A stretch of 7,777 bases of DNA. It comes from a virus (lineage: Duplodnaviria; Heunggongvirae; Uroviricota; Caudoviricetes). Where the stretch lies: IMG/VR virus record IMGVR_UViG_2645727743_000027; one strand, given 5' to 3'. How positions within the stretch are numbered: position 1 is the stretch's first letter; the number at the start of each line of letters is the position of its first letter. Shown one piece after another: positions 6,006 through 7,360 of this stretch. The translations under genes were made by a program, and so were the position numbers. Below the pieces are notes generated by a model that was given only the letters and a program-made list of their open reading frames with translations, had not been told where the DNA came from and made no database searches.

Positions 6006-6224
6006 ATGTACTTGACACTTCAGGAGTGGAACGCACGCCAGCGACGCCCAAGAAGCCCTGAAACAGTTCGTCGATGGGTACGCGAGTGCAGGATATTCCC
6101 TCCTCCGGTTAAGGATGGAAGAGAGTATCTGTTCCACGAATCAGCGGTAAAGGTTGACTTAAATCGACCAGTAACAGGTAGCCTTTTGAAGAGGATCAGA
6201 AATGGGAAGAAGGCGAAGTCATGA
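6006..6224 (+). CDS. xis: Excisionase Xis (72 aa)
   Basis: MYLTLQEWNARQRRPRS...NGKKAKS is almost identical to lambda Xis as I recall it; the 3' end overlaps int by 23 nt, as in lambda. Confidence 0.95.
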   Translation: MYLTLQEWNARQRRPRSPETVRRWVRECRIFPPPVKDGREYLFHESAVKVDLNRPVTGSLLKRIRNGKKAKS

Positions 6225-7275
6225 GCGCCGGGATTTACCCCCTAACCTTTATATAAGAAACAATGGATATTACTGCTACAGGGACCCAAGGACGGGTAAA
6301 GAGTTCGGATTAGGCAGAGACAGGAGGATAGCAATCACTGAAGCAATACAGGCCAACATTGAGTTACTCTCAGACAGCGGACGGGAGTCACTGATAGACA
6401 GAATTAAAGGCGCTGACACAATCACTCTTCATACGTGGCTTGACCGATATGAAACAATCCTCACCGAAAGGGGTATCAGACCGAAAACTCTACTCGACTA
6501 CGCCAGCAAAATCAGGGCAATCCGAAGAAAATTGCCGGACAAACCGCTCACTGACATATCAACGAAAGAGGTGGCTGCAATGCTAAACACCTACGTCGCA
6601 GAAGGTAAAGCAGCGTCCGCAAGAGTAATCAGGTCAACCCTTGTTGACGTTTTTCGTGAGGCAATAGCCGAGGGGCATGTGGCAACGAATCCGGTAACAG
6701 CAACCCGCGCAGCAAAGTCAGAAGTAAGGCGCTCAAGGCTGACAGCTAATGAGTATGTCGCGATTTACCATGCAGCCGAACATCTCCCAATCTGGCTGAG
6801 GCTGGCAATGGATTTGGCTGTCGTTACAGGGCAGAGAGTAGGCGATTTATGCAGAATGAAATGGTCAGACATAAACGACAACCATCTTCACATTGAGCAG
6901 GGTAAAACAGGGGCTAAGCTCGCCATTCCGCTGACGCTAACGATTGACGCGCTCAATATCTCATTGGCTGATACACTACAGAAATGCAGGGAGGCCAGCG
7001 GCAGTGAAACAATAATTGCATCAACGCATCACGAACCGCTTTCCCCGAAAACAGTATCTAAGTATTTTACAAAGGCGAGAAATGCATCTGGACTCTCATT
7101 TGATGGAGACCCGCCAACATTCCATGAACTGCGTAGCCTGTCGGCGAGGCTATACCGGAATCAGATTGGCGATAAGTTTGCTCAACGTCTTCTCGGGCAT
7201 AAATCAGATTCAATGGCGGCGCGGTATAGGGACAGCCGAGGGAGAGAATGGGACAAAATTGAAATCAATAAATGA
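6202..7275 (+). CDS. int: Tyrosine integrase Int (357 aa), lambda-family
   Basis: First ~55 aa identical to lambda Int (MGRRRSHERRDLPPNLYIRNNGYYCYRDPRTGKEFGLGRDRRIAITEAIQANIEL), remainder clearly homologous but divergent. Catalytic signature residues present (VTGQRVGDL, HELRSLSARL, LLGHKSD, RYRD tyrosine region). Confidence 0.95.
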   Translation: MGRRRSHERRDLPPNLYIRNNGYYCYRDPRTGKEFGLGRDRRIAITEAIQANIELLSDSGRESLIDRIKGADTITLHTWLDRYETILTERGIRPKTLLDYASKIRAIRRKLPDKPLTDISTKEVAAMLNTYVAEGKAASARVIRSTLVDVFREAIAEGHVATNPVTATRAAKSEVRRSRLTANEYVAIYHAAEHLPIWLRLAMDLAVVTGQRVGDLCRMKWSDINDNHLHIEQGKTGAKLAIPLTLTIDALNISLADTLQKCREASGSETIIASTHHEPLSPKTVSKYFTKARNASGLSFDGDPPTFHELRSLSARLYRNQIGDKFAQRLLGHKSDSMAARYRDSRGREWDKIEINK

Positions 7276-7360
7276 TTTTATTTTGATTAATAATGACCCA
7301 TGCAATGTAATTTATTGATAATTAAAGAGATTTCAAATATGCAACTTACCTTATTTAAGG
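7276..7360. other. Putative attL: phage P'-type arm with Int arm-type site-like sequences, and a candidate core near 7342-7360
   Basis: AT-rich segment after the int stop. The reverse complement of 7290-7300 is TGGGTCATTAT, close to the lambda arm-type consensus as I recall it, and ATTGATAA at 7313-7320 is IHF-site-like. Homology to the downstream repeat begins at 7349, marking the phage/host junction. Confidence 0.45.

Follow-up and report, generated by a model that had tools for sequence, protein, structure and literature searches.

What decides where a lambdoid prophage sits in its host chromosome, the integrase or the attachment site on which it acts? The question is raised by a stretch of 7,777 bases from the IMG/VR virus record IMGVR_UViG_2645727743_000027 (hereafter the window), in which a gene for an integrase (Int) of the phage HK022 type lies beside an attachment (att) site that is not that of HK022. 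The int gene (6202..7275 on the plus strand, including the stop codon) encodes a 357-residue heterobivalent tyrosine recombinase, and the DNA beyond it belongs to the sib/ibs type I toxin-antitoxin locus of Escherichia coli. We conclude, with high probability for the explanation taken as a whole, that the window holds attL, the end next to int, of a lambdoid prophage of ∼49 kb that lies in the E. coli chromosome and has an HK022-type integration module. The difference from phage lambda appears to lie in the core specificity of Int, and the further difference from HK022 in a 7-bp overlap only.

Homology to phages in BLAST searches (HK022, mEp235, Gally, H19J and Stx1a phages) stops exactly at position 7348 (query position 1349), and the DNA to the right matches the E. 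coli chromosome between yegL and mdtA, with mdtA the next gene in homologous genomes, just beyond the end of the window. Because the phage matches end there and chromosomal DNA follows, the 19-mer CAACTTACCTTATTTAAGG at 7342-7360 is best understood as part of a hybrid attL junction. Read on the plus strand, the stretch 7342-7362 comprises three elements. The core-type Int site C' (CAACTTA, 7342..7348), identical in lambda, HK022 and the window, contributes the last phage-derived bases. The 7-bp overlap CCTTATT (7349..7355; AATAAGG in the conventional B-O-P' orientation) lies between C' and B, and the same 7-mer is found in the attR of three related lineages and in intact attB. The core-type half-site B (TAAGGCC, 7356..7362; GGCCTTA on the other strand) supplies the first host-only bases and is identical to unoccupied sites in RM9975 and SF-088. 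A reading of this DNA made earlier from its letters alone (the sequence-only reading) had taken the 19-mer as a candidate core unlike that of lambda and had treated 7276-7360 as phage att DNA. The 19-mer does differ from its lambda counterpart, CAACTTA GTATAAA AAAGCTG, but it is a prophage-host junction and not an attP core, and phage DNA ends inside that segment, at 7348, with E. coli chromosome from the overlap rightwards.

The partner sites are found in related genomes. We analysed the far end of the prophage in strains MFDS1001074, ESBL 15 and M18, since the genome of AMSHJX01 is rearranged. In these three divergent lineages the attR at the sib locus reads ACCCTTT / CCTTATT / AAAGGAT and is followed by an HK022/lambda-like P arm with P1/P2-like sites, and unoccupied ACCCTTT / CCTTATT / TAAGGCC is present in RM9975 (in the middle one of three sib copies) and in SF-088. 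The attL, the attR of three lineages and the intact attB sites therefore imply an attP of CAACTTA / CCTTATT / AAAGGAT and an attB of ACCCTTT / CCTTATT / TAAGGCC. All of the sequenced HK022-type phages examined (HK022, mEp235, Gally and H19J) carry CAACTTA / TTCACCT / AAAGGAT, and torS prophages with the same Int type carry CAACTTA / TTCACCT / [A/T]AAGTGCACCGACC (that is, [A/T]AAGTGC). The HK022 attB is GCACTTT AGGTGAA AAAGGTT (oligonucleotides in PMC5512741) and is located between torS and torT (PMC6814406). The window overlap thus differs from that of HK022 at six of seven positions (CCTTATT vs TTCACCT), whereas both core-type sites of HK022, C (ATCCTTT) and C' (TAAGTTG), are kept, C' in the window and C in the attR of the three related lineages. 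Relative to the HK022 core, only the overlap is replaced, the core-type sites of Int being the same. The two half-sites of the host, ACCCTTT and GGCCTTA (opposite strand), are similar to those of the HK022 set, namely ATCCTTT, CAACTTA, GCACTTT and AACCTTT.

To which integrase type does the protein belong? In a gap-free alignment with lambda Int, residues 1-55 are identical (55/55), the core-binding part agrees at 78/112 positions and the catalytic part at 133/181, giving 268/357 overall; the lambda-identical N-terminus followed by divergent but homologous sequence, as described in the sequence-only reading, is therefore correct. The same pattern holds for DNA, with identities to lambda of 212/219 for xis, 160/165 (97%) for int codons 1-55 and 606/906 (67%) for codons 56-357, so the identity of the N-terminal part is indeed higher than that of the rest. 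The break is sharp, at ∼6360-6370, and from ∼6361 on identity runs at 58-70% per 60-nt window. Codons 1-55 (6202..6366, plus strand) correspond to the arm-type DNA-binding domain, which is the same as in lambda and HK022 Int. With HK022 Int, 338 of 357 residues are identical (94.7%), leaving 19 differences, and the equal length of 357 aa that had been proposed for HK022 Int is confirmed in the alignment. Over xis, int and the P' arm, DNA identity is 94.2% with HK022 and 94-96% with mEp235, mEp506, Gally, H19J and several Stx1a prophages, but only ∼77% with the lambda, 434 and HK97 types.

The Pfam domains of Int, all above their gathering scores, are Arm-DNA-bind_1 (PF09003, residues 1-68), PF02899 (Phage_int_SAM_1, 81-158) together with PF22022, spanning 81-171, and Phage_integrase (PF00589, 179-346); they reproduce the arm-binding, core-binding and catalytic layout of lambda-family heterobivalent integrases. 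The best PDB matches, over the full length, are lambda Int structures 5j0n and 1z1g (E∼1e-178), and catalytic R212, K235, H308, R311 and H333 and the nucleophile Y342 are all present (lambda numbering). At residues 99, 282, 283, 287 and 319 the window and HK022 have D99, P282, K283, K287 and R319, where lambda has N, S, G, R and E. These positions reportedly switch lambda to HK022 core specificity, a result said to come from Dorgai, Yagil and Weisberg in 1995. The window Int is accordingly classed as HK022-type, and would join a lambda-identical arm-binding domain to HK022-type core-binding and catalytic domains. The pattern suggested in the sequence-only reading, in which arm recognition is shared with lambda and core specificity switched, is borne out by these residues; it is a textbook combination and nothing new. 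The accompanying guess of HK022 or a relative holds for the second half only, because the overlap and the chromosomal site are not those of HK022.

We compared four sib-type and six tor-type Ints, which vary at 42 positions. A single residue, 356 (codon 7267-7269), segregates with att type, being N in the four sib-type and D in the six tor-type proteins; the window has N356 in place of the D356 of HK022 Int. The sib-type Ints do not have their closest relatives among themselves. Residue 356, the last but one, belongs to the C-terminal tail, and its codon abuts the arm-type site P'3, ∼70 bp from the core, which makes linkage to the att haplotype the simplest reading. The base 5' of C' (7341) likewise is G in the sib type and A in the tor type, and with N356 it makes up a short att-linked haplotype, these being the only changes that track the overlap allele.

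How widespread the sib-type site is was determined over 5,426 complete E. coli genomes. Its attL is present in 85 of them (∼1.6%) and its attR in 92, and the torS-type attL is present in 194. The window as a whole matches prophages in ∼12 complete E. coli genomes, AMSHJX01, ESBL 15, MB06102 and ECO2947 among them, with 99.1% identity over 98% of its length; in the last three, attL and attR lie ∼49 kb apart around the 99.1%-identical prophage. The prophages at the sib site differ in cargo (nleA; espJ-cif-nleH; unrelated genes) and in the P arm, at 92-100% identity. At torS there is a prophage with the HK022 overlap TTCACCT that shares 96% identity with the window over 243-7348, and two att alleles would therefore circulate on very similar phage backbones. 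Taken together, these distributions mark the sib-type att as what appears to be an established variant and not an accident.

Several observations weigh against an established overlap variant served by an unchanged integrase. The host B (GGCCTTA) matches HK022 B GCACTTT at only 3/7 positions, though CTTA is common to it and C'. Because N356 and the G 5' of C' track att type in a small sample, they leave a little room for a contribution from the protein. Several carriers are remnants of ∼15-16 kb, for example MFDS1001074 and M18, and vertical inheritance, as opposed to repeated integration, may account for some of the 85-92 genomes. Finally, INPHARED, IMG/VR and metagenome contigs yielded no free phage or circular attP with CCTTATT, so that attP is reconstructed from attL and attR only. 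Exact-pattern scans of IMG/VR gave 0 matches with AACTTACCTTATTAAAGGAT and 22 with CTTACCTTATTAAAGGA, all in unrelated contexts, and a scan of metagenome contigs for the inferred attP gave 5 matches, AT-rich and unrelated. A synthetic 53-nt attP compared by BLAST with INPHARED recovered HK022-type sites only, at ∼80% identity. The attL pattern AACTTACCTTATTTAAGG had 17 chance matches and 0 enterobacterial ones among GTDB species representatives, which is a weak test with one genome per species.

The alternative that survives best is that the Int protein has gained a new core-site specificity, the new target not following from an overlap swap alone. It draws on the 19 differences from HK022 Int, several of which are in the core-binding and catalytic domains, as well as on the poor match of the host B half-site and the segregation of residue 356. 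We nevertheless regard it as improbable: phage C and C' are identical to those of HK022, the five residues reported to switch specificity are unchanged, and none of the 19 differences except that at 356 is common to all sib-type Ints, while several occur in tor-type Ints too. Residue 356 itself, so near the end of the chain and so far from the core, is more simply explained by linkage.

It is less probable still that a phage with an ordinary TTCACCT attP made a rare aberrant insertion into a secondary site in the sib gene, with no established attP variant behind it. Secondary-site insertion is known for lambda, and the failure to find a free CCTTATT-attP phage in the collections searched would fit such an event. 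However, six mismatches in a 7-bp overlap should block strand exchange, for which identity is required (PMC5512741, PMC7736782). CCTTATT is moreover found in both attL and attR, in no fewer than three or four prophage lineages that are divergent and differ in cargo, the junctions recur in 85-92 genomes, and the linked haplotype (G 5' of C' and N356) marks the sib type.

That the window derives from HK022 itself, or from a phage of the HK022 att type at the canonical torS-torT attB, has next to no chance of being right. The Int, Xis and P' arm are 94% identical to those of HK022, the Int length is the same and C' is identical, but the junction and the flank already refute it: the overlap is CCTTATT, and the prophage is flanked by the Sib terminator, sib/ibs and mdtA in place of the torS flank that is seen in tor-type relatives. 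A lambda integrase acting on a lambda att site, as residues 1-55, Xis, the first 14 nt of the P' arm and C' (all identical or nearly so) might suggest, is refuted outright by the 67% DNA identity after codon 55 and by an overlap and flank unlike lambda's GTATAAA and gal-bio site.

We return to an HK022-type module in which only the overlap is exchanged, and to the sites on which its Int would act. The DNA after the int stop codon begins TGATTTTATTTTGA, as does the lambda P' arm, and the first 14 nt of the arm are identical or nearly so to lambda; GGTCATTAT lies on the minus strand within GGGTCATTAT at 7290-7299. The likeness to the lambda P' arm and the arm-type motif on the other strand had both been noticed beforehand and both stand. 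Alignment with the lambda and HK022 P' arms predicts three tandem arm-type Int sites on the minus strand: P'3 (AAAATCATTT, 7270-7279, overlapping the int stop codon), P'2 (TAATCAAAAT, 7280-7289) and P'1 (GGGTCATTAT, 7290-7299), names that we take over from the established lambda att anatomy. The lambda annotation places an Int-binding region ('int 4') over the equivalent stretch. A putative H'-like site for IHF, TATCAATAAATTA (7308..7320, minus strand), fits the consensus pattern WATCAANNNNTTR and occupies the same alignment position as lambda H'. Over the P' arm the window and HK022 agree at 62/73 nt, and the P arm is homologous. At the sequence level the full att layout thus lies next to int, with arm-type sites, a predicted IHF site and inverted core-type sites flanking a 7-bp overlap. 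The P'2 site reads TAATCAAAAT in the window lineage, TAGTCAAAAT in HK022 and CAGTCAAAAT in lambda, a change within the conserved GTCA core of the arm site. A sigma-70-like match, ATGACC-18-GATAAT at 7293-7322 on the plus strand, overlaps P'1 and H' and points out of the prophage through attL.

By analogy with lambda and HK022, residues 1 to ∼64 of Int would bind P'1-P'3 while the other two domains bind C' and B, IHF would bend the H'-like site at 7308-7320, Y342 would cleave at the boundaries of the 7-bp overlap, and Xis would direct excision. The overlap would have to be identical in attP and attB, and Int would not read it; the need for identity is stated in both PMC5512741 and PMC7736782, and the HK022 overlap may be arbitrary if it is identical in both partners (PMC7736782). 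Since strand exchange needs an identical overlap, the overlap sequence would select the chromosomal target, and because Int is blind to it, an overlap swap would be sufficient to retarget the phage. A phage with CCTTATT in attP instead of TTCACCT would thus integrate at ACCCTTT / CCTTATT / TAAGGCC and not at torS-torT. The target would be the 3' end of a Sib antitoxin small RNA (sRNA) gene and the 5' leader of the antisense ibs toxin gene, between yegL and mdtA. We infer that the window Int catalyses this reaction with unchanged protein specificity. The only support for an active, self-mobilising prophage is indirect, from intact int and xis open reading frames (ORFs) and from paired attL and attR sites ∼49 kb apart in several genomes. 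The variant likely arose in the way of the lambda 'saf' mutants, by a rare secondary-site insertion followed by an excision that carried the host overlap along. These site-affinity mutants, attributed to Weisberg et al. in 1983, are said to have had their target altered solely through a change in the attP overlap.

The host flank explains the choice of locus. In K-12 the exact overlap CCTTATT occurs only at sibA and sibB, which accounts for the position of the prophages at yegL-mdtA. The further sib genes were considered as targets and set aside, their overlaps in K-12 being different (TCCTTCA in sibC, CCTTCTG in sibD, CCTTATA in sibE). A predicted hairpin (7357..7381, plus strand, -19.0 kcal/mol) would be the orphan terminator of the interrupted Sib sRNA gene, with the Sib body left at the opposite end of the prophage. 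This hairpin has homologues 3' of an intact Sib copy in the window (7687-7707) and at the 3' ends of K-12 sibA and sibB, inside the annotated sRNAs. A consensus terminator scan of 7150-7777 reported none, because the Sib hairpin lacks a clean T-run; folding does reveal the hairpin. At 7371-7378 the orphan terminator has a run of eight G (CTCGGGGGGGGC) where every relative examined has GGGAGGGG; either a true substitution or a sequencing error in the homopolymer could account for the difference.

The intact copy is a SibB-like antitoxin sRNA (7541..7683, plus strand; Rfam SIB_RNA RF00113, 137.6 bits against a gathering score of 56, E=3.3e-29). Antisense to it, at 7612..7668 on the minus strand, an 18-aa ibs toxin ORF encodes MMKWIIIVVLLVISFPAY; the homologous position in NZ_CP106929 is annotated as a type I toxin-antitoxin system Ibs family toxin. 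The copy also holds an unoccupied paralogous site, ACCCTTT / CCTTATT / TATGGCC (7670-7690, plus strand). The number of sib/ibs copies at yegL-mdtA varies (two in K-12 and SF-088, three in RM9975 and in the strain of the window), and so does the half-site after CCTTATT (TAAGGCC, TATGGCC or AAAAGCC, the last two being the K-12 alleles). The copy that holds the prophage has TAAGGCC in the junctions examined. That the TATGGCC copy of the window is unoccupied hints that the B half-site allele matters for targeting.

The Rfam Sib model ends with the 7 nt of the overlap, and B extends into the base of the Sib terminator stem. The opposite strand reads AATAAGG-AAAGGGT-C-ATG, which places the crossover 9 nt upstream of the ibs start codon, within the Shine-Dalgarno region. 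From this position, integration would part the Sib body from its terminator, and the ribosome-binding site and ORF of ibs from the promoter that precedes them; in ibsC and ibsD the promoter is located upstream of position -8 (PMC2943612). The window would accordingly keep an orphan terminator and, presumably, an orphan ibs promoter aimed back at int. The HK022 P' arm is reported to contain an outward promoter that drives torS (PMC6814406). It is a speculative extension that a transcript from the promoter-like match at 7293-7322, which has the same direction as that of HK022, would run into the orphan Sib terminator.

The remainder of the window is the early-left arm of a lambdoid prophage, followed by the host DNA described above. 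Its ORFs have a single orientation and encode Ral-like, DUF2528, cIII, Gam, Bet and Exo proteins, several small ORFs, an AntA-type antirepressor, Xis and Int. The lambda cIII thermoregulator (Rfam RF01804, Lambda_thermo, 88.5 bits) is found at 812-870 on the plus strand within the cIII region, consistent with a lambda-like early-left operon of ral, cIII, gam, bet and exo. The excisionase gene xis (6006..6224, plus strand; 72 aa; Pfam Exc PF07825, E=2.4e-40) overlaps the start of int, and its product differs from HK022 Xis by one residue and from lambda Xis by two. A match to sRNA-Xcc1 (Rfam RF02221, 69.3 bits against a gathering score of 53) lies at 5170-5258 on the plus strand, between a 186-aa ORF without a Pfam match (4415-4975) and the AntA/P22_AR_C antirepressor gene (5298-5921).

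Genes for type III secretion system effectors stand beside attR in related prophages: MFDS1001074 has espJ, an nleG-family gene and cif, AMSHJX01 has nleH, cif and espJ, and ESBL 15 has nleA. The sib site would therefore be one that is used by effector-carrying phages of attaching-and-effacing E. coli. In AMSHJX01 (NZ_CP030939.1) the 99.1%-identical prophage at 1,772,695-1,824,500 has its int end at mdtA, while its tail/effector end (nleH, cif, espJ) abuts ybhB-bioA, the lambda attB side, and the sib-side attR is at 3,323,454, ∼1.5 Mb away from the prophage. These split ends point to a large chromosomal inversion through recombination between two lambdoid prophages. Some genome records have two places that match the int/P' segment, and genomes carrying both att alleles, with two prophages under one Int/Xis specificity, may exist. 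In the literature on a prophage site at sib/ibs/mdtA/yegL we found no analysis of the att site; the sole mention found is a table in the genome paper of a Shiga toxin-producing E. coli O145:H25 strain, which lists a lambda-like prophage as 'P10 ... yegL ... nleH, espJ, cif' (PMC7437938).

How does this module compare with known ones? With HK022, mEp235, Gally, H19J and the Stx1a prophages at torS-torT it has in common the Int type with its lambda-type arm domain and five specificity residues, Xis, and both core sites; it differs in the overlap (AATAAGG vs AGGTGAA in the conventional orientation), in attB and at residue 356, and the rest of the window prophage is lambda-like, with effector cargo in related copies. 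The likeness to lambda lies in the arm domain, the near-identical Xis, the arm-site layout, C' and the overall mechanism, and the difference in core-binding and catalytic domains of ∼70% identity, core specificity, overlap and chromosomal site. The closest parallels in principle are the lambda saf mutants and the engineered HK022 attB/attP pairs, in which an unchanged integrase has its target shifted solely by the attP overlap (for HK022, PMC7736782). Those are laboratory mutants or designed sites, whereas the type seen here is a natural variant of ∼1.6% of complete E. coli genomes. A natural case of an attachment-site sequence, and not the integrase, adapting to alternative bacterial sites is offered by the Staphylococcus aureus Sa3int phages (PMC8649754); integrase family and host are different there.

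The mechanism is fully predicted by existing knowledge, and its interest is modest. A broader proposal, which we offer tentatively and consider somewhat more apt to fail than to hold in all its parts, is that HK022-type modules exist as at least two natural 'overlap alleles', of which the CCTTATT allele retargets interchangeable lambdoid prophages, some of them with type III effectors, into a type I toxin-antitoxin locus. In lysogens the pair would then be rewired or silenced, much as HK022 rewires torS, and the strains and sib copies open to lysogeny would be set by the matching allele TAAGGCC, as against TATGGCC or AAAAGCC.

The result is small but clean, a natural example in which the overlap, not the protein, can set the insertion site of a tyrosine integrase. 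Near-identical Ints serve two sites, torS-torT (194 genomes) and sib/ibs-mdtA (85), of the 5,426, and prophage typing by Int similarity alone would mis-assign the insertion site. For CRIM-type HK022 vectors, strains in which sib has the TAAGGCC allele provide an orthogonal landing site, and the same Int should work there. For the host, a Sib/Ibs family member is physically cut in two by a prophage, with possible physiological effects, and related prophages at the sib site bear on genome stability through the part they would take in large chromosomal inversions.

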